Shown: positions 17,281 to 42,503, numbered from the stretch's first letter. The stretch: 64,000 bases of DNA from Pseudomonadota bacterium (GCA_041182225.1 JBEGOC010000206.1:14194-78193), one strand, 5' to 3'. A program made the numbers and translations. Notes: a model not told the origin generated them from the sequence alone.

Positions 17281-17315
17281 AAAAGCCTGCTATTTTAACG
17301 ATAGCAGGTTTTTTT
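17281..17315 (+). terminator. Intrinsic terminator after tRNA-His (possibly bidirectional)
   Basis: AAAAGCCTGCTAT-tttaacg-ATAGCAGGTTTTTTT. Confidence 0.88.
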
Positions 17316-17420
17316 ATGGCCGGCTCAAGCTTAGAGGCTTAGAGGCAGACACGACGAGGCGTGCGAGGCAGAGCCGAGGCGGACTTTGACGTAAGTTCCT
17401 GATTGATGGAGGTGACCCGT

Positions 17421-18185
17421 ATGCGCTGGATGCGTTTTGAACACCAGGGCGCCACAGGATTTGGCGTGTTGGAGGGCGACCAGGTTCGCTGTTATCAGGG
17501 TGATATGTTTGGCACGCCTGTAGCCACGCAGATTCAACTGAATGTCGCGGCGCTGACATGGCTTCCGCCCTGCAGGCCAGGCAAGATCATCGGTTTGTGG
17601 AACAACTTTCGAACTGCCGCCGAAAAAAACGGGTGGGCTGAGCCGTTGGAGCCCCTGTATTTTCTCAAGTCGCCAGGCAGCGCGGCGGGGCATTTGAAAG
17701 CGGTTGCCGTACCGGCAAGCTATGGCGGCAGGGTGGTGTACGAGGGTGAACTCGTGGTGGTGATTGGCAAGACCGCACGGGCAGTGGCCGTGCAGGATGC
17801 AGCCACGCATATTTTTGGATACACCTGCGGGAACGACTTCACGGCGCTTGAACTGCTCCACCGTGATGCCTCCTTCGCGCAATGGACCCGGGCCAAAAGT
17901 TTTGACGGTTTTGCGGCTTTCGGTCCGACCATCGAGACCGAGTTCAATCCTGCCAGTTGCCATTTGCGTACCTTGGTGGGTGGGCGCGAGCGGCAGAACT
18001 ATGCGTTGTCCGACATGTTTTTCAGCCCACTGGAACTGGTTTCCCGGATTTCGCATGACCTCACGCTCGAACCCGGCGACCTGATTTATTGCGGCACGTC
18101 GCTGGGCGTGCTACCCCTGAAGCCTGGGACCACCGTCGATGTGGTGGTCGATGGCTTGGGAACCCTGTCCAACCTCTACGGCTGA
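17421..18185 (+). CDS. Fumarylacetoacetate hydrolase family protein
   Basis: YEGELVVVIGK, GYTCGND, RAKSFDGF, TLEPGDLI.CGT; GGAGG RBS before ATG 17421. Confidence 0.92.
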   Translation: MRWMRFEHQGATGFGVLEGDQVRCYQGDMFGTPVATQIQLNVAALTWLPPCRPGKIIGLWNNFRTAAEKNGWAEPLEPLYFLKSPGSAAGHLKAVAVPASYGGRVVYEGELVVVIGKTARAVAVQDAATHIFGYTCGNDFTALELLHRDASFAQWTRAKSFDGFAAFGPTIETEFNPASCHLRTLVGGRERQNYALSDMFFSPLELVSRISHDLTLEPGDLIYCGTSLGVLPLKPGTTVDVVVDGLGTLSNLYG

Positions 18186-18189
18186 GCGC

Positions 18190-19197
18190 TTAGCTGGCGT
18201 TGATCTGCAGCCTGCCCCTGTGGCGCGCCAGTGTGTGGGCCAGCAGCCGGGTTGCCGCATAGATGGCGTTAATCGTGGGTGTGGCGGTTTGGGTCATGCG
18301 GGCTAATTCGACGACAGAACCTAGCAGTGCGTCCAACTCAAGAGCGCGACCGTGCTCGATGTCTTGCAGCATGGACGTTTTGTGCGCACCCACCGCCTGG
18401 GCCCCGGCGATGCGTTTCTCAAGCGAGATCTTGAACACCACCCCGAGTTTTTCCGCCACGGTTTGCGCCTCGGCCATCATGTTGGCGGCCAGCAAGCGGG
18501 AAGGCCCAAAGGAGCAAATATCTTCCAGGGTGGCATGGGTCAGCGCGGAGATTGGATTGAAGCTCAAATTGCCCCAAAGCTTGAGCCATATCTCGCTGCG
18601 GATATCCCGGGATATCGGCGCCTTGAACCCTGCGCGCATCAGGGCCTGAGCCAGTACCTCGATCCGCTCACTTCGATTGCCATCGAGCTCGCCTAGGGTA
18701 AATCGGTTCCCTTCAATGATGCGCACCACCCCTGGGGTCACAAGCTCAGCCGCCGGGTACACCACACTGCCAATGACGCGCTCGCTGCCAATGCAGCTTG
18801 CGATGCGCCCGCCCGGATCGACACTCTCCAGCCCGCGGCCTTGGTGCTCACCCGGCAGCCCTTGGAAATACCACCATGGAATACCATTGATCATGGTGAC
18901 CAGCATGGTGTTCGGCCCCAAGAGCTTTTGGAGGTCGGGCAGCAGATCGCCGACCTGGTGGGCTTTGACGGTCAGCAGAACTGCGTCCTGCTGGCCGGCA
19001 TCGGCCATGTTCTGCACTGCGCGAACACCGGTCGCGTGTTCTTCGCTACCGTCCTCCAAGATCAGTCTAAACCCATTTTTTTCAATGGCGGCAAGGTTCT
19101 GGTTGCGCGCGATAAAGGTCACCTCTTCACCAGCATTGGCCAGTTTGGCGCCGAGGTAGCCTCCGATCGCTCCGGCTCCGACCACTGCGATTTTCAT
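18190..19197 (-). CDS. Ketopantoate reductase family protein (PanE2-type, putative oxalyl-CoA reductase)
   Basis: GAGAIGG, NGIPWWYF, WLKLWGNLSFNP, HKTSMLQD; co-operonic with oxalate-CoA ligase-like gene (function is inference). Confidence 0.8.
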   Translation of the reverse strand: MKIAVVGAGAIGGYLGAKLANAGEEVTFIARNQNLAAIEKNGFRLILEDGSEEHATGVRAVQNMADAGQQDAVLLTVKAHQVGDLLPDLQKLLGPNTMLVTMINGIPWWYFQGLPGEHQGRGLESVDPGGRIASCIGSERVIGSVVYPAAELVTPGVVRIIEGNRFTLGELDGNRSERIEVLAQALMRAGFKAPISRDIRSEIWLKLWGNLSFNPISALTHATLEDICSFGPSRLLAANMMAEAQTVAEKLGVVFKISLEKRIAGAQAVGAHKTSMLQDIEHGRALELDALLGSVVELARMTQTATPTINAIYAATRLLAHTLARHRGRLQINAS

Positions 19198-19211
19198 GTC
19201 AAGACCTTGCT

Positions 19212-20714
19212 TCAGCCTGCCTTGCGCTTGGCCGAGTTGCCTTTGAACAACGCCAGAAGCGGCCAGAGCAGCATGATGACAGCCAGACCGGATATGGAAC
19301 CGACCAGCGGGTTAGACCAGAAAATTGACACTGACCCCTGCGACAGCAACATCGACTGCCTGAAACTCGCTTCGGCCATATCGCCCAGCACCAGGGCGAG
19401 CACCAAAGGCGCCATTGGGTACCTCAGCTTTTTGAAGAGGTAGCCCACCACGCCGAAAACCAGCATCATGACGACATCAAACATGGAACTGTGCACGGTG
19501 TAGGCGCCAACCGCACAAATCACCACGATCACCGGGGCAATGACGGAGAAGGGAATCCGCAAAAATGCCGCCCAGAATGGCACAGTGGTCAAAACGACCA
19601 CCAGCCCGACCAGATTGCCGATGTACATCGAAGCAATCAGGCCCCACACAAAGTCCTTGTGCTCAACAAAGAGCATGGGCCCTGGTTGCAGGCCCCAGAT
19701 CATCAATCCGCCCAACAACACTGCCGCCGTTGGCGACCCCGGGATGCCCAGGGTCAGCATGGGTAGCAAGGCCGAGGTGCCTGCAGCATGGGCCGCCGTC
19801 TCGGGTGCCAATACGCCCTCAATCTGGCCCTTGCCAAATGAGTCAGGCTCTTTCGACATGCGCCGGGCAATGCCATAGCTCATGAAAGACGCCGGTGTGG
19901 CCCCGCCAGGCGTGATCCCCATCCAGCAACCGACTGCCGTGGACCGCAGGAAAGTCATCCAGTAACGCGGAAGCTGTTTCCAGGTTTGCAGCACAACACG
20001 CAAGTTGAGCTTGGCGCTCTTGCCCTTGAAGGCCAGGCCCTCTTCGATGGTCAGCAGGATCTCGCCGATGCCAAACAGCCCGATCACGGCAATCAGGAAG
20101 TCGAAGCCCTTGAGCAACTCCGGATAGCCATAGGTCATGCGCAGTTGCCCCGTCACCGTGTCCATGCCAACCGCCGCCAGGGCAAAGCCCAGCGTCATGG
20201 CGGCAATCACCTTGGCAGGCGGCTCCTTGCTCATGCCGACGAAACTGCAAAAGGTCAGCAACTGCACCGCGAAGTACTCTGCCGGACCAAAACGCAGTGC
20301 AAATTTGGCAAGGAGTGGCGCCAGAAAGGTGATCAGCCCGACAGCAAACAGCGCTCCCACAAAGGAGGAGGTAAATGCCGCGGTCAGGGCCTGCGCCGCG
20401 CGACCTTGTTGCGCCATGGGGTAGCCGTCAAAGGTGGTCGCCACCGACCAGGGCTCTCCGGGGATGTTGAACAGAATCGACGTGATCGCCCCGCCAAACA
20501 GTGCGCCCCAGTAAATGCAGGACAGCATGATGACTGCAGAAGTCGGGTTCATCGAGAAGGTCAGCGGCAACAGGATGGCAATGCCGTTGGCGCCGCCGAG
20601 TCCCGGCAAGACACCGATCAATATGCCCAGGGTGATGCCAACCAACATATAAACCAGGTTGGGCAGCGTCATGGCAACGCTGAAACCTTGCATCAGGTTG
20701 TTGATTTCGTCCAT
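19212..20714 (-). CDS. tctA: Tripartite tricarboxylate transporter large permease
   Basis: GVLPGLGG, ILFNIPGE, TFDGYPMA, LGIPGSPT. Confidence 0.95.
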   Translation of the reverse strand: MDEINNLMQGFSVAMTLPNLVYMLVGITLGILIGVLPGLGGANGIAILLPLTFSMNPTSAVIMLSCIYWGALFGGAITSILFNIPGEPWSVATTFDGYPMAQQGRAAQALTAAFTSSFVGALFAVGLITFLAPLLAKFALRFGPAEYFAVQLLTFCSFVGMSKEPPAKVIAAMTLGFALAAVGMDTVTGQLRMTYGYPELLKGFDFLIAVIGLFGIGEILLTIEEGLAFKGKSAKLNLRVVLQTWKQLPRYWMTFLRSTAVGCWMGITPGGATPASFMSYGIARRMSKEPDSFGKGQIEGVLAPETAAHAAGTSALLPMLTLGIPGSPTAAVLLGGLMIWGLQPGPMLFVEHKDFVWGLIASMYIGNLVGLVVVLTTVPFWAAFLRIPFSVIAPVIVVICAVGAYTVHSSMFDVVMMLVFGVVGYLFKKLRYPMAPLVLALVLGDMAEASFRQSMLLSQGSVSIFWSNPLVGSISGLAVIMLLWPLLALFKGNSAKRKAG

Positions 20715-27186: not shown

Positions 27187-27525
27187 ATGTACATCCGTTG
27201 CGCATTTTTCCGCGGTCAGGTCAAGCCCGGGTTCGAAGACGCCTTCAAGGCCTACATCCGTGAGCAACTGGTGCCCTTGTGGACCCGGTTTCCCGGCGCA
27301 CAGGAGGTGCGGGTGCTGCGACAGGTGGAGTGCGATGTGAGCGACCCGAGGCTTGAGATGGTGCTGTCGGTCCGCTACCCGAGCCGCGAGTCGATTGACA
27401 TTGCCTTGGCTTCTGAGGTCCGGCATCGCAGCCGCGAGGTGTCCAAGGGACTGCTGGCGATGTTTGATGGCACGGTGTTCCATACGGTGTTCAGCGCCGA
27501 TGACTACGTGCTGCCCACCGATTAG
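27187..27525 (+). CDS. Small hypothetical protein, EthD-like dimeric alpha/beta barrel
   Basis: 112 aa; 'VPLWTRFPGAQEVRV...YPSRESIDIALAS' pattern; fills operon gap. Confidence 0.55.
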   Translation: MYIRCAFFRGQVKPGFEDAFKAYIREQLVPLWTRFPGAQEVRVLRQVECDVSDPRLEMVLSVRYPSRESIDIALASEVRHRSREVSKGLLAMFDGTVFHTVFSADDYVLPTD

Positions 27526-27604
27526 TTTGTGTAGAAAGCGCCGGCCGATCGCGTTGGTCAGCCGACCCGAGTTAGTGATGTTTTTTCAACCAGGAGACAG
27601 TCTC

Positions 27605-28579
27605 ATGAAAGTTTCACGTTTATTGCTTGCCTGCCTGATGGCCAGCATCGGCACAGCCGCTCTGGCTGCCAAGTTCAACCTCAAACTCGGGCATGCAGTC
27701 AATGCCACCGACGGGCAGCACGCTGCCGCCGTCAAGCTGGCGGAGCTGGTTAAGCAGCGGACCAACGGCGATGTCGAGATCACGGTTTACCCCTCCAACC
27801 AGCTGGGCAATGACGCCGCCATGATCAACGGCACCCGTGGCGGCACGATTGACATCGTATCCAGCGGCGCCTCCAACTTCAACGGCATTGTGGCCAATAC
27901 CGCAGCCCTTGAGTTGCCCTTTGTGTTCCGGAATGCCCAACACGCTTACAACGTGCTGGATGGCGCGGTCGGTACCGCCATCCTGGAAGAGCTGTCACCG
28001 CACAGCCTCAAGGGCCTGGCCTACTGGGAAAACGGCTGGCGCGCGTTCACCAACAACAAGCGCCCCATCCGCACGCCTGACGATGTCAAGGGCCTGAAAA
28101 TCCGCTCCACCGGTAACCCCTACCATATCCAGGCGTTCAAGCTCTTGGGCATGAACCCGTCGCCGATGCCCATCGCCGAGCTGTACACCGCGCTGGAGGC
28201 CGGCACCTTCGATGCTCAGGAACACCCAATCAACGTGACCTGGTCGTCCAAGTTTTATGAGGTGCAAAAACATCTGACGGTGAGTAACCATGTTTACTCG
28301 CCGCTGATCCTGGCGATGAACAAGGCCAAGTTCGACAGCCTCCCGGCGAACTACCAGGCCATCATGGTCGAATCGGCACGGGAAGCCGCCAAGTACCAGC
28401 GTGAACTCAATGCTGGCAATGCCAGCAAGGTCGTGGCTGAGCTGAAGAAGTCCGGCATGCAGGTCATCGAGGTGGTGGACATGGCGCCGTTTCAGAAACT
28501 GACGTCGGACGCCATCGCCAAGTCCTTTGGCGAAAAAAATGGCACGGCGTTGCTCAAAGCCATTGAGGGCACCAAGTAA
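27605..28579 (+). CDS. dctP: TRAP transporter substrate-binding protein
   Basis: Signal peptide, YPSNQLG, ENGWR, GLKIR, ELYTALEAG.FDAQEHP; AGGAG RBS before ATG 27605. Confidence 0.95.
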   Translation: MKVSRLLLACLMASIGTAALAAKFNLKLGHAVNATDGQHAAAVKLAELVKQRTNGDVEITVYPSNQLGNDAAMINGTRGGTIDIVSSGASNFNGIVANTAALELPFVFRNAQHAYNVLDGAVGTAILEELSPHSLKGLAYWENGWRAFTNNKRPIRTPDDVKGLKIRSTGNPYHIQAFKLLGMNPSPMPIAELYTALEAGTFDAQEHPINVTWSSKFYEVQKHLTVSNHVYSPLILAMNKAKFDSLPANYQAIMVESAREAAKYQRELNAGNASKVVAELKKSGMQVIEVVDMAPFQKLTSDAIAKSFGEKNGTALLKAIEGTK

Positions 28580-28593
28580 CGCATGCCGCCTGT

Positions 28594-28625
28594 CGTCGAC
28601 TCTTCCGCTTTCGGGAGGGTCGACG
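28594..28625 (+). other. Intercistronic 14-bp stem-loop between dctP and dctQ
   Basis: CGTCGACTCTTCCG-cttt-CGGGAGGGTCGACG (2 G-U pairs), no U-tract. Confidence 0.7.
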
Positions 28626-28641
28626 CTGACCTTCGCCGCCC

Positions 28642-29181
28642 ATGAAAATCCTGAGCAACCTTTTTTTTAGGCTGGCCGAGATGCTTCTGGTCACCATGCT
28701 GGCCATCATGGTCATCATGGTGTTTGGCAATGTGGTGCTGCGCTACGGCTTCAACTCCGGCATCATCAGCTCCGAGGAGTTGTCGCGTTATTTGTTCATC
28801 TGGATCACTTTCCTCGGCGCCATCGTCGCGTTTCGGGAGAATGCTCACCTGGGGCTTGATACGGTGGTCAGGCTGTTGCCGTCCAGCGGCAAAAAAGTAT
28901 TTTTCGCGCTGTCCAACGTGCTGATGCTTGGGTGTTGCATGCTGATGTTCTACGGCACCTGGAAACAGCACGGTATCAACGCGACCACCCGGTCGCCAGT
29001 GACCGAGACGCCGATGATCTGGGTCTACGGTGTGGGCTACGTCGCCAGTGTGGCCATGGGCCTGATGATTGTCGGCAAACTGGTGGGCGTAGCGCGGGGC
29101 AAGTTTGCCGATGATGACCTGATCCAGGTCCAGGACTCCGAGGATACCGCTGTGCCACACACCCAAGGGGCGGCACGATGA
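28642..29181 (+). CDS. dctQ: TRAP small permease
   Basis: NVVLRY, SEELSRYLFIWITFLGA, 4 TMs. Confidence 0.93.
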   Translation: MKILSNLFFRLAEMLLVTMLAIMVIMVFGNVVLRYGFNSGIISSEELSRYLFIWITFLGAIVAFRENAHLGLDTVVRLLPSSGKKVFFALSNVLMLGCCMLMFYGTWKQHGINATTRSPVTETPMIWVYGVGYVASVAMGLMIVGKLVGVARGKFADDDLIQVQDSEDTAVPHTQGAAR

Positions 29182-30458
29182 CCATTCTTGTGTTTGTCGG
29201 GTCGCTGCTGGCGGCCATGGCGCTGGGCATGCCCCTGGCTTTTTCTTTGCTGGTGTCGGGTGTGGCCCTGATGCTGCACCTGGATCTGTTTGACACCCAG
29301 ATCGTGTCGCAAAACCTGATCAGCGGTGCCGACAATTTCCCTTTGATGGCTGTGCCGTTTTTCATGCTGGCTGGCGAGCTGATGAATGCCGGCGGTATGA
29401 GCCGGCGCATTGTCAATTCGGCCCTGGTGTGGGTGGGTCATTTCCAGGGCGGCCTGGGCTATGTGGCCGTATTTGCGGCCATCGTCATGGCCAGCCTGTC
29501 GGGCTCCGCCGTGGCCGATACTGCAGCATTGGCGGCGGTGCTGCTGCCCATGATGCGCAAGGCCGGCTACCGCATGGACCGATCAGCGGGGCTGATCGCC
29601 GCCGGCGGCATCATCGCGCCTGTCATCCCGCCCTCGATCGGCTTCATTTTGTTCGGCGTGATCGGTGGCGTGTCGATCTCCAAGCTGTTCATGGCCGGGA
29701 TTTTTCCGGGCATTCTGATGGGGCTGGCGCTGATCGTGACCTGGTGGATCGTCGCCCGCCACGACAAGGTGGAGGTGTCGCCACGGGTTCCGATGGCGGA
29801 GAAGCTGCGGGTGACGGCCAATGCCTTTTGGGCCTACCTGCTGGCGGTGACCATCATCGGCGGCATGAAGTTCGGCGTTTTCACTCCCACCGAGGCGGCG
29901 GTGGTAGCAGTCGTTTATTCAATGCTGGTCGGACTGTTCATCTACCGCGAGATCAAGTTCCGCGATCTTTACCGCATCACTTTGAGCGCGGCCAAGACAT
30001 CTGCGGTCGTGATGTTTCTGGTGGCTGCGGCGCTGGTCTCGGCCTGGTTGATCACAGTGGCCAACATCCCGGCGCAGATGGTGCAGCTGTTGCAGCCCTT
30101 CATGGACAACAAGATGTTGCTGATGGCGATGCTGATGCTATTGGTGCTGGTTGTCGGGACGGCGCTGGATTTTGCCCCGACGGTGCTCATCCTCACGCCG
30201 GTGCTGATGCCGCTGGTGCGGCAGGCCGGCATCGATCCGGTCTACTTTGGTGTGTTGTTCATCATCAACAATGCCATTGGACTGCTGACCCCGCCGGTCG
30301 GCACCGTGCTGAATGTGGTTTGTGGCGTGGGGCGTATTCCCATGCATGAGGTGATCAAGGGTGTCATGCCGTTTCTGTTGTCGCAGGTGGTGGTGATGGG
30401 CTTGCTGATTATTTTCCCGGGCTTGGTGATGGTCCCTTTGCGCTGGTTGACCAGCTGA
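29178..30458 (+). CDS. dctM: TRAP large permease
   Basis: PFFMLAGELM, SGSAVAD, IPPSI, TPTEAA, TPPVG. Confidence 0.95.
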   Translation: MTILVFVGSLLAAMALGMPLAFSLLVSGVALMLHLDLFDTQIVSQNLISGADNFPLMAVPFFMLAGELMNAGGMSRRIVNSALVWVGHFQGGLGYVAVFAAIVMASLSGSAVADTAALAAVLLPMMRKAGYRMDRSAGLIAAGGIIAPVIPPSIGFILFGVIGGVSISKLFMAGIFPGILMGLALIVTWWIVARHDKVEVSPRVPMAEKLRVTANAFWAYLLAVTIIGGMKFGVFTPTEAAVVAVVYSMLVGLFIYREIKFRDLYRITLSAAKTSAVVMFLVAAALVSAWLITVANIPAQMVQLLQPFMDNKMLLMAMLMLLVLVVGTALDFAPTVLILTPVLMPLVRQAGIDPVYFGVLFIINNAIGLLTPPVGTVLNVVCGVGRIPMHEVIKGVMPFLLSQVVVMGLLIIFPGLVMVPLRWLTS

Positions 30459-30464
30459 TCGCCC

Positions 30465-31235
30465 ATGGCCGTGCTTGATTCCTTCCGGCTGGATGGCCGC
30501 ACTGCGCTGATCACGGGATCATCGGGTGGCATTGGCCTGGCGCTGGGTCGTGCACTTGGGCAGGCTGGCGCCCATGTCGTGCTCAATGGCCGGCGCGCTG
30601 ACAAGCTCGATGCCGCGGCCCGGCAGTTGCGCTCGGAAGCCCTGCATATCAGTATGTCGCTGTTTGATGTGACCGACGCCGCCGGCGTCCGTGCTGCCGT
30701 TGACGCCATCGAAGCCGATTTGGGGCCGATCGATGTGCTGGTCAATAACGCCGGCATGCAGGTTCGCAACCCGCTGCATGAGTTTGCCGATGAGGACTGG
30801 CACCAGTTGATGAAAACCAACCTCGACAGCGCGTATTTTGTTGGCAAGGCCGTGGCGCAAAAAATGATCCCGCGCGGCCGCGGCAAGATCATCAACATAT
30901 GCTCCGTGCAAAGCGAATTGGGGCGTCCCGGCATTGCGCCCTACACCGCCAGCAAAGGCGCCTTGAAAATGCTGACCAAGGGCATGGCGATTGACTGGGG
31001 GCCACTCGGCATCAATGTGAACGGGCTGGGCCCGGGCTACTTCAAGACCGAGTTGACGGAAAAGCTGGTGGCCGACCCATCGTTCACGGCTTGGCTGGTG
31101 GGGCGCACGCCCAGTCGGCGCTGGGGCGATGTGCAGGAACTGGGTGGTGCTGCCGTGTTTCTGGCCAGTGACGCATCAGCCTTTGTGAACGGCCATATTT
31201 TGTATGTCGATGGTGGCGTAACCGCTACCCTGTGA
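30465..31235 (+). CDS. idnO: Gluconate 5-dehydrogenase (SDR)
   Basis: TGSSGGIG, NNAGMQ.R, ICSVQSELGRP.IAPYTASKG, PGYFKTE. Confidence 0.92.
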   Translation: MAVLDSFRLDGRTALITGSSGGIGLALGRALGQAGAHVVLNGRRADKLDAAARQLRSEALHISMSLFDVTDAAGVRAAVDAIEADLGPIDVLVNNAGMQVRNPLHEFADEDWHQLMKTNLDSAYFVGKAVAQKMIPRGRGKIINICSVQSELGRPGIAPYTASKGALKMLTKGMAIDWGPLGINVNGLGPGYFKTELTEKLVADPSFTAWLVGRTPSRRWGDVQELGGAAVFLASDASAFVNGHILYVDGGVTATL

Positions 31236-31247
31236 AAGGATCAGACC

Positions 31248-32300
31248 ATGCGTGCCCTTATCTGCCATGCCGCCGAGGACCTTCGGCTTGAAAACATCGA
31301 CATGCCGGCACTGGGTGAGCAACAATTGCTGGTGCGGGTAGCTTATGGCGGCATTTGTGGCTCAGACCTGCACTACCAGCAGCATGGCGGTTTTGGCACG
31401 GTACGCATCAAACAGCCGCTCGCGCTGGGCCACGAGGTGTCCGGCATCATCGAGACCGTAGGCGCCAAAGTCAGTGGTTTTCACTCAGGCCAACGGATTG
31501 CAATTTCCCCCTCCAGGCCCTGCGGCAGCTGCCGCTTTTGCCAGTCTGGCATGCACAACCAGTGCCTGGCGATGCGCTTTTATGGGAGCGCCATGCCGTT
31601 TCCTCATATCCAGGGCGCGTTCTGCGAGCACCTGGTGATCGAGTGCCACCAGGCGCACCCGGTGCTGGATCACCTGAGCCTGTCCGAGGCAGCGCTGGCG
31701 GAGCCCTTGTCGGTGGGGCTGCACGCCATTCAACGGGCAGGCGGTGTGCTCGGCAAGCAAGTGCTGGTCACTGGCTGCGGCCCGATCGGCTCACTGCTGA
31801 TTGCGGCCTTGCGACGCAGCGGTGCAGCCCGAATTGTGGCGGCCGACATCACGGATCTGCCGCTGCACTGCGCAACGCAGATGGGTGCGGATGAGACCAT
31901 CAACTTGCGCACCCACCCCACGGAGCTCGACAGGTACAAGACTGACAAGGGTCAATTTGATGCGGTGTTTGAAGCGTCAGGTAGCCAGGCTGCCTTGTTG
32001 GCGGCGTTGGATGTGATCGCACCACGCGGTGTGCTGGTCACTGTCGGGCTGGGCGGCGATATCAGCCTGCCCATGAACCAGATCGTGGCCAAAGAGGTTG
32101 ACTTGCGGGGTACCTTCCGCTTCCATGCGGAATTTGCCACCGCTGTGCAGTTCCTCAACCAGGGCTTGGTGGACGGCAAACCGGTGATCACCAATGTGCT
32201 GCCCATGAGCCGAGCGCACGATGCCTTTGCGCTGGCCGCTGACAAAAGTCAGTCACTCAAGGTGCAAATTGCGTTTGCAGAGCAGGGCCAGGCCGCATAA
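31248..32300 (+). CDS. idnD: L-idonate 5-dehydrogenase (Zn MDR)
   Basis: GGICGSDLHY, GHE, C-C-C-C Zn site, MRFYGSAM.FPHIQGAF, GTFRF. Confidence 0.92.
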   Translation: MRALICHAAEDLRLENIDMPALGEQQLLVRVAYGGICGSDLHYQQHGGFGTVRIKQPLALGHEVSGIIETVGAKVSGFHSGQRIAISPSRPCGSCRFCQSGMHNQCLAMRFYGSAMPFPHIQGAFCEHLVIECHQAHPVLDHLSLSEAALAEPLSVGLHAIQRAGGVLGKQVLVTGCGPIGSLLIAALRRSGAARIVAADITDLPLHCATQMGADETINLRTHPTELDRYKTDKGQFDAVFEASGSQAALLAALDVIAPRGVLVTVGLGGDISLPMNQIVAKEVDLRGTFRFHAEFATAVQFLNQGLVDGKPVITNVLPMSRAHDAFALAADKSQSLKVQIAFAEQGQAA

Positions 32301-32357: not shown

Positions 32358-32684
32358 GTGAAAAAAACATTCCAACTCCTTGTCGAAGGCAAGCACCCGG
32401 ATCGCCTGCTGGAGGCCAGCAAGCACGAGGTGCGCAAATACGTGGCGCGGCAGCGGCGCGCAGCCTTGCCCAAAGGCGTTGACTATTGGGATTTCGCCTG
32501 CCGCTTTGGCAGTACCGAGGCCGATGCCAAACCGGTGCATTTTGCGACCCTGATCGGCTTGATGGACGCCGCCGCCAAAGCCGGCTCGAGCAGCTTCTTT
32601 GTGGATATTTTGGGGCAGCACGGTGTCCGCAAGGCAAAGCCAGCTTTCAACCCGGCAGAAACCATGACCGACACCGCTGCCTGA
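32358..32684 (+). CDS. Conserved hypothetical protein (DUF6172-like)
   Basis: KKTFQL...HPDRLLEA.KHEVRKY...LPKGVDYWDF.CRFG. Confidence 0.75.
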   Translation: MKKTFQLLVEGKHPDRLLEASKHEVRKYVARQRRAALPKGVDYWDFACRFGSTEADAKPVHFATLIGLMDAAAKAGSSSFFVDILGQHGVRKAKPAFNPAETMTDTAA

Positions 32685-32709
32685 CACCGCCGCCTGACAC
32701 CGCCGCCTG
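32670..32709 (+). repeat. 13-bp tandem repeat x3 across the stop codon
   Basis: GACACCGCTGCCT GACACCGCCGCCT GACACCGCCGCCT G. Confidence 0.9.
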
Positions 32710-32738: not shown

Positions 32739-33530
32739 TCAGGGCCGGACAGCCGGCACCTCCAGCAGCATGCCGGCAGCCCGTTGTGCCAGGTAGAGTT
32801 CGAGTGCCACCAGTTCGGGTGAGCCGAAAGCAAAGGGCGCGGCGCGCACGCCGCTCATGCAGTTGCGTAGCCGACGCTGCAAGGTACCCATGCCTTGCCA
32901 CTCCAGCCGATAGAGCGGATAACCAGTCGGATGTGCCTGCGGGATCAGCGTGCCACCCAACAGCCGTCCAGCCTGTTGGTCATGGCATTGGGCACAGGAC
33001 AGGTCCAACTGGCCAAAGCGCTGCTCAAACAGCGCCTTGCCGCGCTGGCGAAAGGGCCGCAGATGGGGGTCGTGATCCGGGCGGATCGACATGCCTCGGG
33101 ACTGGTGGGCCACCACGGTTTCGAGTGCAATCAAGCGCTGGTCCAGGGCCGGCAGTCCGGGTGCCAGTTGATGCCGCTGGCGACACAGGTTGATGCGTTC
33201 GCTCAGGGCCACGGGTTTTTGGCTTGGGGCGTCAAAGCGCGGGTACTGCGTGGCAACGCCGCGCAGCGCGCTGACGGCGCCATGGCAATCGGCGCAGGAC
33301 TTGTCGGCACTGCCTGTTTTGCGGCCCCAAAGGGCCTCGCCGTCGGCCACCCACAGCATCGCCGGGTTTTGCCGGTCATCGCGCTGCATGGCCTGGGTGG
33401 CAGGCGCCATGTCTGCATAGCCGGAGCGCCGGCCCTGCTCGTCGGGGCTCGTTGAAGGCTGCGCGTTGGCCAGCAATGGCAAGATCGCTGTTAGCGTCAG
33501 GGCCCACTGGGCCGAAAGCCAACACCGCAT
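32739..33530 (-). CDS. soxA: SoxA-type c cytochrome (diheme)
   Basis: Sec signal, NPAMLWV..GE.LW, CADCH, RINLCR, CAQCH, GYPLYRLEWQ..GTLQRRLRNC. Confidence 0.92.
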   Translation of the reverse strand: MRCWLSAQWALTLTAILPLLANAQPSTSPDEQGRRSGYADMAPATQAMQRDDRQNPAMLWVADGEALWGRKTGSADKSCADCHGAVSALRGVATQYPRFDAPSQKPVALSERINLCRQRHQLAPGLPALDQRLIALETVVAHQSRGMSIRPDHDPHLRPFRQRGKALFEQRFGQLDLSCAQCHDQQAGRLLGGTLIPQAHPTGYPLYRLEWQGMGTLQRRLRNCMSGVRAAPFAFGSPELVALELYLAQRAAGMLLEVPAVRP

Positions 33531-33538
33531 CGGCGCAA

Positions 33539-33874
33539 TCAGCCCATCACCTGCAGTGGCACGATTTCGGTTTGGCTGAAACCCTGGTCCCCTTCCCAGA
33601 TCAGGGTCAGCGTTCCACTACCGGTGGCGCGCAACTGGAACGCCAGGTAGGGGTTGGCCGAGATGGCCGGGAACAGCTCCGCCGCAAATACCAGCGTTCG
33701 CCCGGAGCTATCAGAAAAAAAACATTTGAAGTGCCGGATCAGATCGCGCGGCAGAATCACGCCGTCTGAACCAGGCCGGTAGCCGGTCTCCATCGGATGG
33801 GCAATCAGTGTCTGGATCTCGATCGTGTCGCCCCGGCGTACCGACTTCGGGAGGTTGATCAGTGTGCGGGCCAT
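33539..33874 (-). CDS. soxZ: SoxZ sulfur carrier subunit
   Basis: LIAHPMETGYR, AISANPYLAF; no signal peptide. Confidence 0.92.
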   Translation of the reverse strand: MARTLINLPKSVRRGDTIEIQTLIAHPMETGYRPGSDGVILPRDLIRHFKCFFSDSSGRTLVFAAELFPAISANPYLAFQLRATGSGTLTLIWEGDQGFSQTEIVPLQVMG

Positions 33875-33887
33875 GATGGAAGCGGCT

Positions 33888-34376
33888 TTAGTCGGTTTCG
33901 ATGCAAGCGGCCAGTGTCACGAACACCTCGATGGTGTGTGACCAGCAGCTGCCGTCGTTCATGCGCGCCATGGCCACCAGTTGTTGTGTGGTGGCCAAAC
34001 GGATCCGGGTTGACACCTTGGCCAAGCCCGAGTGGGGTCCCAGTTGAAAACTGGCCACCTCGGTTTGCGGGTTGCGCTCATTGAAGATCGCGATGGCCGT
34101 CACGTGGTCACCCGGGCTCATGGGGCTATCGACGGTAACCGTTGCCGGTACGGCATTGCCGTTGTCCACCAGCCGGGCCACGTCCAACAAGACCCGTCCG
34201 ACCTGAATCCGGGCGCCGGCAGCAAACGCATTCATGGCCTGGGTCAACTCGTCCTGGGTTGCAAAGGCCGGTCTCACCAGAACAGCCGCACCCAGCCCGA
34301 AGCCGGCGGCCAAGGCTTGCCGCCGGGTGGGGGCGGCTGGCGCAAACCACGGGGATCGGGATGGGCGTGCTGTCAC
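33888..34376 (-). CDS. SoxY-related protein with AACIE C-terminal arm
   Basis: Tat-like TRRQAL signal, DNGNAVP, NERNPQ, STRIRLA, ends VTLAACIETD instead of GGCGG; GTG start 34376 inferred. Confidence 0.88.
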   Translation of the reverse strand: MTARPSRSPWFAPAAPTRRQALAAGFGLGAAVLVRPAFATQDELTQAMNAFAAGARIQVGRVLLDVARLVDNGNAVPATVTVDSPMSPGDHVTAIAIFNERNPQTEVASFQLGPHSGLAKVSTRIRLATTQQLVAMARMNDGSCWSHTIEVFVTLAACIETD

Positions 34377-34401
34377 GGCAACATGGGGTGGTGCAGTTGG
34401 A

Positions 34402-34848
34402 TCAGTGCTGCAGCGTTTGCAGGAAGGCCACCACGTCTTCGATCTGCTGGCTGTCCAGCAAGGGCTGACCAAGCCAGGCCGGTCCGACCCGGTTGAGACC
34501 CTCGGTGCCGGCATAGGCCGGCATGATGCTGTCGGGGTTGAGGCTGCGCGCATTGGCCACACGTTGGCGCAATTGGGGCACCGACCAGCGGGCTCCCACC
34601 CCAGCCAGGCTGGGCGCCAGATTGCCCTGGACGCGCGGGTCCCCGACGGGCGCAGCGTGGCACAACAGGCACAGGCCCACTTGCCGGCTGACCACGATGG
34701 CCTGACCCCGTCCGGCGTCGCCGGTCAAGGCTGGTAACGGGTCCGGCCCGCCTTGAGCCGCCGCAGCACCCAGCTGTAACGACAGCACTGCGATGAAGGC
34801 GCGCAAACGCTCGCGGGCCTTGGGCTGCAGAGCAGCTCGCGGCGTCAT
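34402..34848 (-). CDS. soxX: SoxX-type monoheme c cytochrome
   Basis: GDAGRG, CLLCH, GNLAPSLAGVGAR, NPDSIMPAY, IEDVVAFL. Confidence 0.9.
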   Translation of the reverse strand: MTPRAALQPKARERLRAFIAVLSLQLGAAAAQGGPDPLPALTGDAGRGQAIVVSRQVGLCLLCHAAPVGDPRVQGNLAPSLAGVGARWSVPQLRQRVANARSLNPDSIMPAYAGTEGLNRVGPAWLGQPLLDSQQIEDVVAFLQTLQH

Positions 34849-34863
34849 GACGCGCGCGTGCGG

Positions 34864-37077
34864 TCACGCCTTTTTGAGGCTGTGCTTGCTGAGCGGCAAG
34901 TCACGGATTCTCTGGCCGGTGGCCGCAAAGATAGCATTCAACACAGCGGGCGCTGCCACGGCAATGGTTGGCTCGCCAACCCCACCCCAGAAGCCGCCCG
35001 AGGGCATGACAATCGACTCGACGCGAGGCATGTCCGACATTTTGACCACCGGATAGGTATGAAAGTTGTCCTGTTCCATGCGGCCATCTTTCACCGTGCA
35101 GGCACCAAACAGCGCCGCCGAGAGGCCGTAAGCAAACGAGCCTTCAATCTGAGCCTCGATCTGCTGCGGATTTACCGCATGCCCGGGGTCGGTGGCCGCC
35201 ACGATGCGATGAATCTTCAGTACGCCATCGTCGCTGACCGAGACCTCGGCGCACGCGGCCACATAGCTGCCGAAGCCCATCGTCTGGGCCAGGCCGCGGA
35301 AGACGCCTTTAGCCGCAGGTTTGCCCCAGCCGGCTCCCTGTGCCGCTGCATCCAGCACCGCCCGGTGCAGCGGGTGTCGCGCCAGCAGCTTGTGCCGGAA
35401 GGCCAGAGGATCCTGGCCCGTGGCATGGGCGAGTTCGTCGATGAAGCACTCCACATAAATGCTGTTCTGGTTCAGGTTGACGCCACGCCAGAAACCTGCC
35501 GGCACATGCGGATTGCGCATGGCATAGTCGATCAGAAGGTTGGGTAGGCTGTAGCCGAGATGCCCCTCCGCACCGCCGGCCAGTAGGCCCTGAAACACCA
35601 CCGGGTCTTTGCCGTCCTTGATGCTCTGGGGCGCCACTGTGGCCAGAATCGACTGTCCGGCAATGCGCATGTGCAAGCCGGTGACCTGGCCCTGGGCATC
35701 AATGCCGGCGGTCAGTTTGCACTGGGTCACTGGGTGGTAACGCCCGTGCAGCATGTCTTCCTCGCGGCTCCAGATCAACTTCACCGGTATGCCTGGCATT
35801 TGCTTGGCAATGCTGACGGCCTGGTGGATCCAGTCGGTGCCTCCACGCCGGCCGAAGCCACCACCCAACATCAGTTTGTAGACCTCGCATTTGGATGCAG
35901 GCAGGCCGGACGCCTCGGAGGCGGCCGCCAGCGCGGCTTCGCCATTCTGGGTGGGGGTCCAAACCTCGCAGCGCTCCGGCGTGCCATTGGCGGCCACGGT
36001 GAACTTGACCGTGGCATTCATGGGCTCCATGGTGGCGTGGTTTTGGTGCGGCATGCCGTAAACCGCTTCGATTTTGCGCGCTGCACCGGCAATCGCCTTG
36101 CGGGCGTCGCCGTTTTCATTGCCCACTGCGGCTTCGGGCGCATCGAGCGCTGCCTTGAGCACTTTGGCAAACGCTTCGCTGGAGGCTTTGGCGTGTGGGC
36201 CCTCGTCCCACTCGATGGGGAGTGCGTCGAGCGCCATCTTGGCGCGCCACCAGGTGTCGGCCACCACCGCGACCGTGCTGTCGTTGACACGAACGACCTT
36301 TTTGACACCCTTGCGCCCGGCAATGGCCGCGGCATCGAAGCTTTTGAGCTTGCCGCCAAACACCGGGCAGTCCTTGATGGCGGCGTTCAACATCCCGGGC
36401 AGTTTCAAGTCGATGCCGTACATCTGGGCCCCGGTGGTCTTGTCCACCGTGTCAAGCCGGGCCAGGCGTTTGCCGGCCAGCTTCCAGTCCTTGGGGTTTT
36501 TCAGGGTAACCGCGGTGGGCTGCGTCAGCTTGCCGGCTGCGACAGCGACCTTGCCGTAGCTGATGGTGCGGCCGGTGGGCACGTGCGTGATCACGCTGTT
36601 GGCCGCCCGACAGTCGGCCGCTGCCACCTGCCATTCGTTGGCTGCTGCCTGCACCAGCATCATGCGGGCAATGGCACCGCCCTTGCGGACGTAGTCCTGC
36701 GAGTCCCGTATGCCGCGGCTGCCGCCGGTACTGAAATTGCCCCAGACCCGATTGCGCGCCAGACTCTGGCCGGGGGTCGGGTATTCCGTGGTGACCTTGG
36801 CCCAATCGCAGTCGAGTTCTTCGGCCACCAGTTGCGCCAAGCCTGTCAGGGTGCCCTGACCCATTTCTGAGCGGGCGATCCGGATCACCACACGGTCATC
36901 CGGTTGAACCACAACCCAGGCATTCACCTCAGCAGCTTGGCTGGCCTGGGCGGACGCGTCCATGGTCCAGGGCGCGGCGATGGCCACCACCAGCCCGGTA
37001 CCTGCCGCCGCCGAGGTGCCCAGAAATTGCCGACGGGAGAGACTGCCCGGGCCGCCTTGAGTCAATGCCTTGCTCAT
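34864..37077 (-). CDS. Molybdenum hydroxylase large subunit (IorB/xanthine oxidase family), Tat-exported
   Basis: SRRQFL Tat motif, [30 protein letters not shown]; ATG 37077 overlaps upstream TGA. Confidence 0.93.
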
Positions 37078-37577
37078 GTGGTGCTCCCGTCGGTGTGCTG
37101 GATAGAGAGACCCGCCACCTTGGTGTTGCCTCCCTTGGCCACCACCTTGATCGCGGCGCGGATCCGGTTGTAGGTGCCGCAGCGGCAAATGTTGGTGATG
37201 GCGGCGTCGATGTCGGCGTCGGTGGGATCGGGTTTTTCCTTGAGCAGCGCCACAGTGGCCATGATCATGCCGCTCTGGCAAAAGCCACATTGAGGCACGT
37301 CCAGTGCGGCCCAGGCCTTTTGCACCGGGTGCAGGCCGTCGGGCGACAGGCCCTCAATCGTGATGATTTTTTCGTTGGGCTGCACGGTTGAGACCGGCCG
37401 GACACAGGAGCGCGTGGGCACGCCATCGATATGGACCGTGCAGGCTCCGCACTGGGCCAGGCCGCAGCCGTACTTGGTGCCTGTCAGACCGAGCTGCTCG
37501 CGCAGCACCCACAGGAGGGGGGTATCACCTTCGGCATCGTGCTCGCGCACGGCATTGTTCACAGTCAGCTTTGACAT
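37074..37577 (-). CDS. 2x[2Fe-2S] small subunit (IorA-type)
   Basis: [35 protein letters not shown]; GGAGG RBS before ATG 37577. Confidence 0.95.
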
Positions 37578-37747
37578 GGGGCCTCCAATAATCGGCCCGG
37601 ACATGCCCAGGTTGTGATTGAGCTCATCTTACGCCGGCGGCGCCAGTGTTGCCAGCAACATCGTCTCAGGGTATACCCGGCATGTGCGTCCGGGGTTTGT
37701 CGTTACCGCAGGGATGGGACAGCAGGGTTGGCTGGCAACCGGCAGGC

Positions 37748-39416: not shown

Positions 39417-41687
39417 TTAAGCCAACCGCAGCGGCAGGGCGCGTAGCCGCTGACCGGTCAGCGCAAACAGGGCGTTGGCCACCGCCGGCGCGATGGGCGG
39501 CGTGCCGGGCTCGCCCACACCCTCGGGCGGGGCGTCGCTGGGGATGATTTCGGTGTGAACAACGGGGCAATCAGCCAGGCGAAGCACCGGGTAGTCATGA
39601 AAATTGGACTGCTGCACCTGACCCTTGCGGATGGTGATGTCGCCAAACAGGGCCGCTGACAGGCCGAACACAATGGCGCTTTCCATTTGCTGTGCAATCA
39701 GATTCGGGTTGATCGGCTGGCCGCAGTCAATGGCGCACCAGACCTGATGAACCCGGATGCGTTTGTCGGGCCCGACCGACACCTCGGCCACCTGCGCCAC
39801 GATGGCGCCAAAGGACTGGTGCAGGGCAATACCGCGTGCCCGCGTCCGACCGTCAGCTGGCGGGGCCACCGGCTTACTCCAGCCGGCCATGGCGGCTGCC
39901 GCCTGCAGGACGCGCAGGTGGCGTGGATGGCGTTTGAGCAGGGCGGCCCGGTAGGCGACCGGGTCCTGCCTGGCGGCGGCCGCCACCTCATCCAGAAAAC
40001 TTTCCTTGAAAAAAGCCTGGTGCGAATGGCCGACCGAGCGCCAAAAGCCCACCGGGACGCCGAGGTCGACGATTTCATGGCCGATGCGGGCGGCCGGCCA
40101 CTCATAGGGTTGGTCGAACGCCCCTTCGGAGCTGGTTTTGTCCGGCCCGGCCGCTGGCAGGCCAAACAGGCGATTGAGTGCCTGCGGCACGATGGCCTGG
40201 CCGGCGGAGGTGTTTTTCCAGGCCAGCAACTCACCATTGGCGCCGAGGCCGGCGGTAAAACGCGACACGCAGGCTGGCCGGTAAAAGTCGTGCCGCATGT
40301 CCTGTTCGCGCGTCCAAAGGGTTTGCACCGGGGCGCCGCCGGCCTCGCGGGCAACGGCGGCTGCCTGGGCAATAAAGTCGACGTCCAGGCGGCGGCCAAA
40401 GCCACCACCGAGGAATTGCACCTGCACGTCGACCTTGTCGTTGGCTAGCCCCAGCACTGCCGCAACCGCGTCGCGCGCCAGCCCGGGCACCTGGGTCGAG
40501 ACCCAGACGGTGGCCGAGCCGTCCTTGACCTGCACCGTGCAGTTCAGCGGCTCCATCGCCGCGTGGGCCAGGTAGGGTGCCCGGTATTCGGCGCTGAGGC
40601 TGCGGCTGGCGCCGGCCAGCGCCGCGTCCACGTCGCCCCGTTTGAAGTAGGCAAAACCGGCCTCGCGGTCCAGGGTTTGCGCCAACTGATCCATCAGTTG
40701 GTCGCTGTCCATGGCAGCATTGGCACCGTGGTTCCATTCGACCGAGATGCGGGCCAGCGCCTGCCGGGCGCGGTGGCTGCTGTCGGCGATCACGGCCACG
40801 CCGGCCGGACTGCCGTTGTAGGAGGCAACGGCGAACACCTTTTTCACGCCCGGCAGTGTTTCGGCCTGACTCGCGTCAAAACGCAGCAAGGTACCGCCCA
40901 GCGTTGGGCACATCAGCAGGCCGGCATGCAGAAGTCCGGTGGGCTTCACGTCGATGCCGAATATCGCGCTGCCATTCACTTTGGCCATCGTCTCCAGCCG
41001 CGGCCGCGGCTGGCCGATCAGTTTGAATTGGGCTGGCGTCTTCAGCACCGGTTTTTTGGGCTGCGGCTGGGTGGCTGCCAGGGCGGCCAACTCGCCAAAG
41101 CTCGCGGATCGGCCCGAGCTGTGCAGCACGCGCCCGGCCAGCGTACGGCATTCGCCGGCGGGCACTGCCCATTGCTTTGCCGCGGCTGCCAGTAGCATGG
41201 CCCGCGCCGAGGCACCGGCTTCGCGCATGGGCAGCCACAGGTCCTTCAGGCTGGACGAGCCGCCCGTCATCATGATGCCAAACTCGCGCATGGCCTTGGC
41301 CGTGAGCCAGCCTGCCAGGCGCTTGACGGCGCCATCGTCATCGGGGTGAAAGGGCAGGCCGTCCACCACCGTGGCCAGGTTGTTGTAAATCTTGTCGATC
41401 GGTGACGCTTCGACCCGCACTTGGGACCAGTCGGCGTCAAGCTCCTCGGCCAGCAGCATGGCCAAACCGGTGTGCACCCCCTGGCCCATTTCGGATTTGG
41501 CCATCACCACGGTCACCGTGTTGTCAGCGCCAATACTTACCCAGCCGTTGAGCGCGCGCTGGCCCAGCCGCTCGGGCCGTGGCTGCGCGGTCAGCAGGCG
41601 CTGCCTTGGCGGCATGACAGACCAGCCGACCACCAGTGCGCCGGCGGCAGTGGCGCTGCCCAATAGCCATGTTCTGCGTGTGACCAT
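39417..41687 (-). CDS. Second molybdenum hydroxylase large subunit (IorB-type), Tat-like signal, no adjacent small subunit
   Basis: [47 protein letters not shown]; start trimmed to ATG 41687. Confidence 0.92.
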   Translation of the reverse strand: MVTRRTWLLGSATAAGALVVGWSVMPPRQRLLTAQPRPERLGQRALNGWVSIGADNTVTVVMAKSEMGQGVHTGLAMLLAEELDADWSQVRVEASPIDKIYNNLATVVDGLPFHPDDDGAVKRLAGWLTAKAMREFGIMMTGGSSSLKDLWLPMREAGASARAMLLAAAAKQWAVPAGECRTLAGRVLHSSGRSASFGELAALAATQPQPKKPVLKTPAQFKLIGQPRPRLETMAKVNGSAIFGIDVKPTGLLHAGLLMCPTLGGTLLRFDASQAETLPGVKKVFAVASYNGSPAGVAVIADSSHRARQALARISVEWNHGANAAMDSDQLMDQLAQTLDREAGFAYFKRGDVDAALAGASRSLSAEYRAPYLAHAAMEPLNCTVQVKDGSATVWVSTQVPGLARDAVAAVLGLANDKVDVQVQFLGGGFGRRLDVDFIAQAAAVAREAGGAPVQTLWTREQDMRHDFYRPACVSRFTAGLGANGELLAWKNTSAGQAIVPQALNRLFGLPAAGPDKTSSEGAFDQPYEWPAARIGHEIVDLGVPVGFWRSVGHSHQAFFKESFLDEVAAAARQDPVAYRAALLKRHPRHLRVLQAAAAMAGWSKPVAPPADGRTRARGIALHQSFGAIVAQVAEVSVGPDKRIRVHQVWCAIDCGQPINPNLIAQQMESAIVFGLSAALFGDITIRKGQVQQSNFHDYPVLRLADCPVVHTEIIPSDAPPEGVGEPGTPPIAPAVANALFALTGQRLRALPLRLA

Positions 41688-41823
41688 CCAATGTCCTTGT
41701 TGTGGGCCCGAGGAAAGTGGGCCGGACCGATGGTACTGTTTTTGCTGGCGGGCAGCCTGGGCCGGAAGCTGAGGTTTAATTGGGCGATGACCTTGTTCCT
41801 GCACCGTTCCCAGAAAGACTGCC

Positions 41824-42426
41824 ATGCTGCTTGACGTCTCCCAATCCCAGCTGGTGCTGGTGGACTACCAGTCCCGCTTGATGCCTGTGATCTGGGAGGC
41901 CGACGCAGTCGCGGCGAATGCGGTGCGTCTGGGCACGCTGGCGCAGTTGATGGGCGTACCCTGCTGGGGCACCGAGCAAAACCCGTCCCGATTGGGCCAA
42001 AACCTGCCAGCCATCCGAGGCTTGTGTGGCCAAACCTTGAGCAAAATGCACTTCAGCGCGGTGGAGGAGGGTTTGGGCGAATGGCTGCGCCCGCCTGCCA
42101 AGCCGCAAGGCGGCAATGCGCGCAGCCTGCCCAAGCATTTGCAGAAGCCCATCGGCGGTCCGCCGCAGCGCGACACGGTGGTGATTGCCGGCTGCGAGGC
42201 CCATGTCTGCCTGCTGCAAACCGCCCTGGATCTGATGGAGGATGAGTTTGACGTGTGGGTCGTGACGGATGCCTGCAGTTCCCGGACCGAACGCAACCGC
42301 GACGCCGCCTTTGACCGGCTGGCCGGCGCAGGCGCAGAATTGGTCACGACCGAGATGGTGGGGTTCGAGTGGCTGCGCACAGCCGAACATCCCGCGTTCA
42401 AGGCAGTCCATGGCCTGATCAAGTGA
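41824..42426 (+). CDS. Isochorismatase (YcaC-like) cysteine hydrolase
   Basis: LVDYQSRL, TEQNP, KMHFS, GCEAHVCLLQTALD, DACSSR. Confidence 0.9.
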   Translation: MLLDVSQSQLVLVDYQSRLMPVIWEADAVAANAVRLGTLAQLMGVPCWGTEQNPSRLGQNLPAIRGLCGQTLSKMHFSAVEEGLGEWLRPPAKPQGGNARSLPKHLQKPIGGPPQRDTVVIAGCEAHVCLLQTALDLMEDEFDVWVVTDACSSRTERNRDAAFDRLAGAGAELVTTEMVGFEWLRTAEHPAFKAVHGLIK

Positions 42427-42503
42427 TGGGCCGCGGTGGCGGGCGTCGGCGTCTGCCGCCCGGGGTCGCCTTGGGACAAGTCAGTCTGTAGCAAGCTGCT
42501 TCG

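Follow-up and report, generated by a model that had tools for sequence, protein, structure and literature searches.

A conserved gene module joining a xanthine-oxidase-family molybdenum enzyme to a variant SoxYZ-type carrier in Pseudomonadota

Background

What does a xanthine-oxidase-family molybdenum enzyme do among Sox proteins when neither SoxB nor SoxCD is encoded beside it? The question is raised by a block of six genes at positions 32739-37577, on the minus strand, of a 64,000-nucleotide stretch of DNA from a Pseudomonadota bacterium (GCA_041182225.1 JBEGOC010000206.1:14194-78193), which at its full length is called the window below. The block encodes the two subunits of the molybdenum enzyme (IorA and IorB), a carrier protein with its partner (SoxY' and SoxZ') and two c-type cytochromes (SoxX' and SoxA'); primes denote the module's own copies. 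An earlier reading of the sequence (the original prediction) had described six tightly packed minus-strand genes with particular domains and motifs; they are present where it placed them, and every detail open to checking is accurate. The module is real, strongly conserved, and already described but unexplained, and, set against characterised systems, it is a variant Sox carrier pathway whose molybdoenzyme comes from a different family. Its best explanation is a self-contained periplasmic oxidation module based on a carrier protein, a reading that builds on the genes present, on their conservation, on the inheritance of one IorB clade together with SoxY'Z', on independence from SoxB, and on a model of the complex that passed its controls.

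Conservation of the link between the molybdenum enzyme and the carrier

Comparison of sequences confirms the six genes as a real, conserved functional unit. Around the AACIE-type SoxY, in the genus and six other families of the order, IorA-IorB adjoins SoxY'Z' in 14 of 14 loci. A pattern scan with a query built from six closer sequences covered one genome per species in a collection of 185,579 species and found a relative in 264; among the best 80 of these 264 loci, IorB is present in all 67 with sufficient upstream DNA (in 60 of them together with IorA), and the remaining 13 stop at a contig edge. The search pattern was narrow, and the figure of at least 264 species carrying the module is a lower bound. 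The claim that the six genes form a conserved unit had been staked beforehand on conservation of the IorAB adjacency, and it stands in both sets of loci.

The link also holds in reverse, when IorB is searched in 151 evenly drawn genomes of the order. Matches at least 49% identical adjoin SoxY'Z' in 29 of 35 cases (27 with the carrier genes directly downstream, one with the sox genes first and one divergent), and among the 30 paralogue matches, which are 37-47% identical, SoxY'Z' is absent from the 3 kb downstream in every case. In a maximum-likelihood tree of 79 IorB sequences, made by a quick LG+G4 search, all linked copies and six copies that stand alone form one clade (Shimodaira-Hasegawa-like approximate likelihood ratio test, SH-aLRT, 99), and 33 paralogues, including a second IorB of the window, form a separate clade (SH-aLRT 99); two long-branched rows from locus L048 fall outside both. 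Two of the solitary pairs come from genomes, G097 and G148, that also have a full module at another place. The two-way conservation and the IorB tree rule out both a link by chance and a passenger gene.

Beyond the order, a search of 401 genomes of the phylum with the profile of SoxY' was followed by the retrieval of 20 wider loci. Arms of the AAC[TV] type occur in two other proteobacterial families, where all seven loci have the order IorA-IorB-FccB-SoxX-SoxY'-SoxZ'-SoxA. None of 13 loci with a GGCGG arm (VKVTIGGCGG-type) has IorAB, and SoxB is a near neighbour in 12 of the 13, in some of them together with SoxC. No SoxB or SoxC gene lies beside an IorAB-linked SoxY' in any locus examined. 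Clustering of all open reading frames (ORFs) in the flanks of 94 loci yields a single other conserved neighbour, an FccB/SoxF-like flavocytochrome-c gene in 12 of the 94, which points to sulfide; no regulator, XdhC-like chaperone or transporter recurs among these flanks.

The module occurs in 29 of the 151 sampled genomes of the order and in at least two other proteobacterial families. Cultured carriers include Curvibacter delicatus NBRC 14919, Noviherbaspirillum, Massilia and Starkeya novella; the second sox cluster of the last, soxX2Y2Z2A2F2 (Snov_1982-1977), has been placed in the same operon as a xanthine-oxidase-family molybdenum enzyme, Snov_1975/1976 (Kappler and Nouwens 2013, PMC3797975). 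One genome of the same genus as the window (G032) has three copies of the module (L035, L047, L048), one of them in tandem with a paralogous IorAB pair. At L048, an IorAB pair stands on either side of SoxY'Z', the two pairs being divergent and long-branched, and the arm ends in ..GACESMELRY.

The molybdenum enzyme

The small subunit gene iorA (37074-37577, minus strand) encodes a protein of 167 amino acids with two [2Fe-2S] clusters and no signal peptide (Pfam Fer2_2, 6e-29, and Fer2), translated from the ATG at 37577, with a GGAGG ribosome-binding site in front of it. The molybdopterin subunit gene iorB (34864-37077, minus strand) encodes 737 amino acids with both cofactor-binding domains, MoCoBD_1 and MoCoBD_2, and a twin-arginine translocation (Tat) signal, SRRQFL, recognised by TIGR01409 at 22.4 against a cut-off of 16.7. 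The two molybdenum-cofactor domains, the GGGFG motif, the catalytic glutamate loop and the Fer2 and Fer2_2 domains of the small subunit place the pair among IorAB-type members of the xanthine-oxidase family, from which hydroxylase activity and a sulfido-ligated molybdenum cofactor are predicted. No NCBIfam equivalog cut-off is reached by IorB. Among solved chains, IorB comes nearest to 8gy3_C (5e-73, full length), which is the large subunit of a membrane-bound aldehyde dehydrogenase from Gluconobacter. An identity of the carbon-monoxide-dehydrogenase type was rejected, the CoxL models matching weakly, partially and far under their cut-offs.

Within IorB, GGGFGRR (405-411) and the catalytic loop G701-E702-P703 (GVGE702P) are invariant in 70 orthologues. 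When residues 340-545 are aligned with human xanthine oxidoreductase, Q377 falls on the glutamine of the molybdenum site and G412 on the substrate-binding Glu802/803 position that follows GGGFGGK. Fourteen positions are fixed in the SoxY'Z'-linked clade and rare in the paralogues, among them R66, R108, R110, M520-R521-N522 and F696-W697. F696-W697 immediately precede the catalytic loop, and M520, R521 and N522 lie within the modelled interface with the carrier described below. The clade-specific arginines of the funnel would suit an anionic sulfur group.

No gene for a flavin adenine dinucleotide (FAD) subunit is found among the IorAB neighbours in the window. The only cytochromes in the gene block are SoxX and SoxA, and a multihaem third subunit of the 8gy3 type is absent from it. 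A second IorB-type molybdenum subunit, 37% identical to the first, is encoded at 39417-41825 on the minus strand, with a Tat-like signal (TRRTWL) about 46 residues into its ORF. No IorA-like 2Fe-2S gene lies beside it, the module copy being the sole match on the contig in a tblastn search with IorA, and the ORFs upstream of it (41776-42494) have no family matches.

The carrier and its cytochromes

The carrier gene soxY' (33888-34376, minus strand) encodes a protein with a twin-arginine motif (TRRQAL) and a C-terminus reading ...LAACIETD, in which the carrier cysteine stands five residues from the end. The protein belongs to the AACIE-arm family TIGR04487 (193 against a cut-off of 172); it falls short of the model for true SoxY, TIGR04488 (92 against 125), and lacks the canonical GGCGG arm. 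The arm cysteine is invariant in 70 orthologues, and a glutamate follows at +2 in at least 90% of them. Its partner SoxZ' (33539-33874, minus strand; 111 amino acids) has the Pfam SoxZ domain as its sole match (4e-21) and remains under the equivalog cut-off of TIGR04490 (68 against 76), which leaves it outside canonical SoxZ.

Both cytochromes, by comparison, retain the canonical ligand sets, a CxxCH haem site with a cysteine ligand in SoxA and a CxxCH site with a methionine in SoxX. The monohaem SoxX' (34402-34848, minus strand; 148 amino acids; TIGR04485, 79.5 against 61) carries the haem motif CLLCH, and C60xxC63H64 and Met109 are invariant among its orthologues. The dihaem SoxA' (32739-33530, minus strand; 263 amino acids; TIGR04484, 215 against 110) has two CxxCH motifs and the cysteine of RRLRNC. 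In 85 orthologues C79xxC82H83, C116, C179xxC182H183 and C224 are invariant, with C116 and C224 as candidate haem-ligand cysteines.

The end of the carrier arm varies with the cytochromes. In every locus that bears SoxXA, the arm cysteine is followed by an aliphatic residue (rarely threonine) and then by an acidic one. A subclade of 13 IorB members has IorA-IorB-SoxY'-SoxZ' only, with no cytochrome gene nearby, and its arms end in ..GCG, ..GCGL, ..ACGG or similar, near the canonical GGCGG (L041, L042, L043, L147-L157). AACIE arms occur without adjacent SoxXA at four loci (L115, L127, L128, L130). Because SoxY'Z' is retained with no SoxXA beside it in these four loci and in the 13 members of the IorB clade, the smallest conserved unit is IorAB with SoxY'Z', and the dedicated SoxXA' seems to have evolved together with the acidic arm.

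These loci bear on one alternative account of the module, in which SoxXA' is a mere electron acceptor for an ordinary IorAB dehydrogenase, replacing the trihaem subunit, and SoxY'Z' is a passenger of the soxXYZA block. IorAB here has neither a flavoprotein nor a cytochrome subunit of its own, and the homologous 8gy3 aldehyde dehydrogenase uses a cytochrome c subunit, both of which would suit such a role. It does not account for a 13-member subclade that keeps SoxY'Z' with no SoxXA adjacent, for the invariance of the SoxY' cysteine, or for the retention in SoxA' of the catalytic cysteine ligands and not of the haems alone; we consider it very improbable.

A predicted complex of the carrier pair with IorB

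The original prediction had proposed modelling the enzyme together with the Sox proteins, and this was done for IorB with SoxY'Z'. Residues 28-150 of SoxY', SoxZ' and residues 45-736 of IorB (the scored partner) were folded together with their own 70-row alignments. The complex scores 0.61 (median of three runs), and the best of three controls reaches 0.01. In the calibration, 58 of 80 solved complexes and 2 of 110 mismatched pairs attained the passing mark, counts that hold only roughly here because the use of our own alignments and a three-chain job differs from the calibration. At least 78% of contacts are common to the runs, with a partner pLDDT (predicted local distance difference test) of at least 87. 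To our knowledge there is no solved complex of a xanthine-oxidase-family enzyme with SoxYZ, and recall is therefore an unlikely source of the result.

On the carrier side, the modelled interface is made up of the SoxY' arm (140-147), the VDNGN loop of SoxY' (55-62) and residues 30-40 of SoxZ'. On the IorB side it comprises 106, 116, 306, 310, 378-394, 412-414, 476-489, 493 and 519-529. By the alignment of IorB to xanthine oxidoreductase, 378-394 and 412-414 flank Q377 of the molybdenum site and the substrate-binding position G412, which puts the patch of modelled contacts around the opening of the substrate funnel.

Three roles for the Sox-like proteins had been offered at the outset: delivery of sulfur to the molybdenum, acceptance of electrons, and tethering of a substrate. 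The funnel geometry fits a tethered substrate, a sulfur one included, and also fits sulfur delivery; electron acceptance on its own is weakened by the IorB subclade that has SoxY'Z' and lacks SoxXA. A carrier pair that docks in the model on the funnel, with all controls at or below 0.01, likewise sits poorly with SoxY'Z' as a passenger, and for these reasons (a subclade without SoxXA, a cysteine that never varies, and the modelled docking) the electron-acceptor account is the weakest of the three alternatives considered here.

The modelled position of the arm at the molybdenum-site funnel would also fit a carrier that services the metal centre. In such a scheme SoxXA' would build a persulfide on SoxY', and the arm would install, restore or supply in trans the terminal sulfido ligand of IorB, whose true substrate would be a free small molecule. 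Enzymes of the xanthine-oxidase family need a labile, cyanolysable terminal Mo=S ligand, and we know of no periplasmic repair route for it; nor would such a scheme require a product-release enzyme. Against it stand the 33 periplasmic-type paralogues of the order that have no such helper, one of them 2 kb away in the window. Four dedicated genes, including a catalytic dihaem cytochrome, would be a heavy apparatus for repair, and the tight co-inheritance resembles that of an enzyme and its substrate carrier. We regard the servicing of the molybdenum centre as quite improbable.

Relation to canonical Sox across genomes

The prediction that SoxB and SoxCD are absent is borne out for the window by gene and family searches; carried over to the genome it fails. 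The source genome is a draft in 333 contigs, 82% complete, and its contig C126 has a complete canonical soxCDYZAXB cluster at about 13388-20146, with SoxB at 853 bits. The SoxY, SoxZ and SoxA of C126 are only 28-32% identical to the copies of the window. A flavocytochrome-like gene and other genes for periplasmic proteins are found upstream of the C126 cluster, and its canonical SoxA is without the first CxxCH motif, which is kept in the SoxA of the module.

Whether module-bearing genomes have soxB and soxCD was one of the checks that the original prediction had called for. In the sample of the order, SoxB is above the cut-off in 22 of 29 module-bearing and 58 of 122 module-free genomes, a rough comparison in which related genomes are not independent, and by this count the module is commoner in sulfur oxidisers. 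SoxB was not found in the other seven module-bearing genomes (G159, G051, G042, G154, G039, G056, G081), six of which are 96-100% complete; since these seven show no SoxB, the module does not depend on canonical Sox. In G051 and in G032 (94% complete), no SoxA, SoxB or SoxC is above the cut-off outside the module, and the sole SoxA copies are those of the module. The idea that the module is merely part of ordinary Sox, with SoxB and SoxCD supplied from elsewhere in the genome, fits the gene content of the source genome and is rejected as a general account by the seven SoxB-less genomes and by G032 and G051.

Further SoxA genes are found elsewhere in three of the SoxB-less genomes (G039, contig C16, about 89811-91443; G056, contig C9, about 104004-105466; G081, contig C9, about 69650). 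In G039 and G056 the extra SoxA adjoins a weak SoxY-like match, and these genes may be another sox cluster without SoxB.

Oxidation on the carrier arm

Our judgement is evenly balanced on the specific proposal that SoxXA loads a sulfur group onto SoxY' and that IorAB oxidises it there in place of SoxCD. IorB would carry IorA across the membrane through the Tat system, and SoxY' would likewise carry SoxZ'. With all the residues for its known chemistry kept, SoxXA' would couple a sulfur substrate oxidatively to the arm cysteine of SoxY', a loading step that SoxXA also performs in canonical Sox, the substrate most likely being sulfane sulfur from sulfide, polysulfide or thiosulfate. Inorganic sulfur is suggested as the cargo because an FccB/SoxF neighbour recurs and the module is enriched in SoxB-positive genomes. 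SoxY'Z' would then dock at the substrate funnel of IorB, its arm extending toward the molybdenum site, and the carrier-bound group would be oxidised by IorAB with water. The two [2Fe-2S] clusters would pass the electrons on to c-type cytochromes, SoxXA' perhaps among them. IorAB would thus fill the role that SoxCD, and perhaps also SoxB, has in canonical Sox.

How the product might be released is a matter of speculation. A four-electron oxidation of Cys-S-S(-) to Cys-S-SO2(-) would give a labile S-sulfinate, which could yield sulfite and the free carrier, and SoxB would therefore be unnecessary. The full statement, that a xanthine-oxidase-family molybdenum enzyme oxidises sulfane sulfur covalently held on a dedicated SoxYZ-type carrier and releases sulfite without SoxB, is tentative, and we lean towards doubting it in this complete form.

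Several points weigh against oxidation of a sulfur group on the arm. Six IorAB pairs inside the linked clade stand alone, with no SoxY'Z' nearby (L189, L192-L196). The predicted complex expresses the confidence of a predictor and is a model rather than a measurement. We know of no xanthine-oxidase-family enzyme that acts on sulfur or on a protein-bound substrate, and no product-release hydrolase is encoded in the module. Lastly, the second sox cluster of S. novella is barely expressed, and its proteins are undetected on thiosulfate, methanol or glucose (PMC3797975), so that thiosulfate may be neither substrate nor inducer.

The near-silence of the S. novella cluster on thiosulfate would also be expected if the tethered substrate were organic. 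In that case SoxXA' would join SoxY' to an organic thiol in a mixed disulfide, or the cysteine would add to an aldehyde, and IorAB would hydroxylate the tethered carbon. Enzymes of the xanthine-oxidase family normally hydroxylate carbon centres, the nearest solved relative of IorB is an aldehyde dehydrogenase, and the modelled docking geometry would be the same as for a sulfur group. The genomic surroundings speak for inorganic sulfur instead: the sole recurrent extra neighbour is a flavoprotein of the sulfide-dehydrogenase type; the 94 loci have no conserved gene nearby for thiol metabolism, or for the transport or regulation of an organic compound; and the rough excess of SoxB in module-bearing genomes runs the same way. 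An organic tether seems unlikely to us, and oxidation of a sulfur group by IorAB on the SoxY' arm is the reading that we prefer.

If IorAB works on the SoxY' arm, the chemistry of the xanthine-oxidase family extends to carrier-bound, probably sulfur, substrates, and the 'duplicate sox genes' of many genomes are explained, a question open since at least 2013. Were the substrate sulfane sulfur, this would be a third, independently evolved molybdoenzyme route of sulfur oxidation, spread widely among Proteobacteria of soil and fresh water, and IorAB would be the first enzyme of its family shown to work on sulfur or a protein-bound substrate. Because the module is common, and is present in genomes in which no other Sox-type system was found, it could be an uncounted route in the sulfur cycle of fresh water and soil.

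Gene boundaries and flanking regions

The genes of the block are closely packed. The stop of iorA and the start of iorB overlap in an ATGA, and the remaining gaps measure 15, 25, 13 and 8 nt, the 25-nt gap assuming a GTG start for soxY' at 34376, which is the probable start as read from the sequence.

Upstream of iorA, a 170-nt intergenic region (37578-37747, minus strand) contains a hairpin after an NlpC/P60 gene and a TAAGAT -10-like box. The box and the hairpin are found again upstream of iorA in close relatives (L035, L049, L050, L054, L055, L056). In the window and in the upstream regions of the relatives, the box lies about 35 nt past the hairpin, whose stems are conserved as stems while their sequences vary. 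The region may serve as a promoter, and a good -35 element is absent upstream of iorA, so that such a promoter may depend on an activator.

At the other end of the block, a consensus scan places a terminator-like hairpin at 32639-32656 (minus strand), about 85 nt past the soxA' stop. Between the two, at about 32667-32707 (minus strand), a 13-nt unit resembling GGCGGCGGTGTCA occurs in three tandem copies. Genes for the tripartite ATP-independent periplasmic (TRAP) transporter proteins DctP, DctQ and DctM, followed by a short-chain dehydrogenase and a zinc alcohol dehydrogenase, occupy 27353-32300 on the plus strand. These transporter and dehydrogenase genes run convergently towards the sox end of the module, with synteny in the closest relatives only.

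Comparison with known systems

The suggestion that the system is undescribed does not hold. NCBIfam includes TIGR04487, 'SoxY-related AACIE arm protein', which contains SoxY'; it is an annotation family only, and its name carries no function. The gene set itself was described for S. novella in 2013, in a study that gives the second cluster no function and suggests that it possibly has no functional significance under the conditions tested (PMC3797975). A literature search for an AACIE-arm SoxY, or for SoxY or SoxYZ with an IorB-type molybdenum hydroxylase, found no functional study, and a 2024 paper on expansion of the SoxY family mentions neither the arm motif nor a molybdoenzyme.

Matched by gene content as described, the S. 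novella cluster resembles the module in its duplicate SoxXA and SoxYZ, its lack of SoxB and SoxCD and its xanthine-oxidase-family enzyme. It differs in having soxF2; the window is without SoxF/FccB, and its order is iorAB followed by soxXYZA. The loci of alphaproteobacterial type retrieved here carry a SoxF/FccB-like gene, as the S. novella cluster does.

With 8gy3 and the IorAB isoquinoline 1-oxidoreductase type, the module shares a Tat-signal molybdenum subunit, a subunit with two [2Fe-2S] clusters and the absence of an FAD subunit. Unlike 8gy3, it has no trihaem cytochrome gene, and its IorB falls in a clade apart, set off by particular residues at the funnel and beside the catalytic loop.

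From canonical Sox, the module differs in an AACIE rather than a GGCGG arm, in having no SoxB, in a molybdoenzyme of the xanthine-oxidase family (IorAB) rather than of the sulfite-oxidase family (SoxCD), and in its occurrence also in genomes where SoxB and SoxC were not found. What the two have in common is a carrier with a C-terminal cysteine arm, a SoxZ partner, SoxXA with a cysteine-ligated haem, a periplasmic site, and a molybdoenzyme that would act on the carrier.

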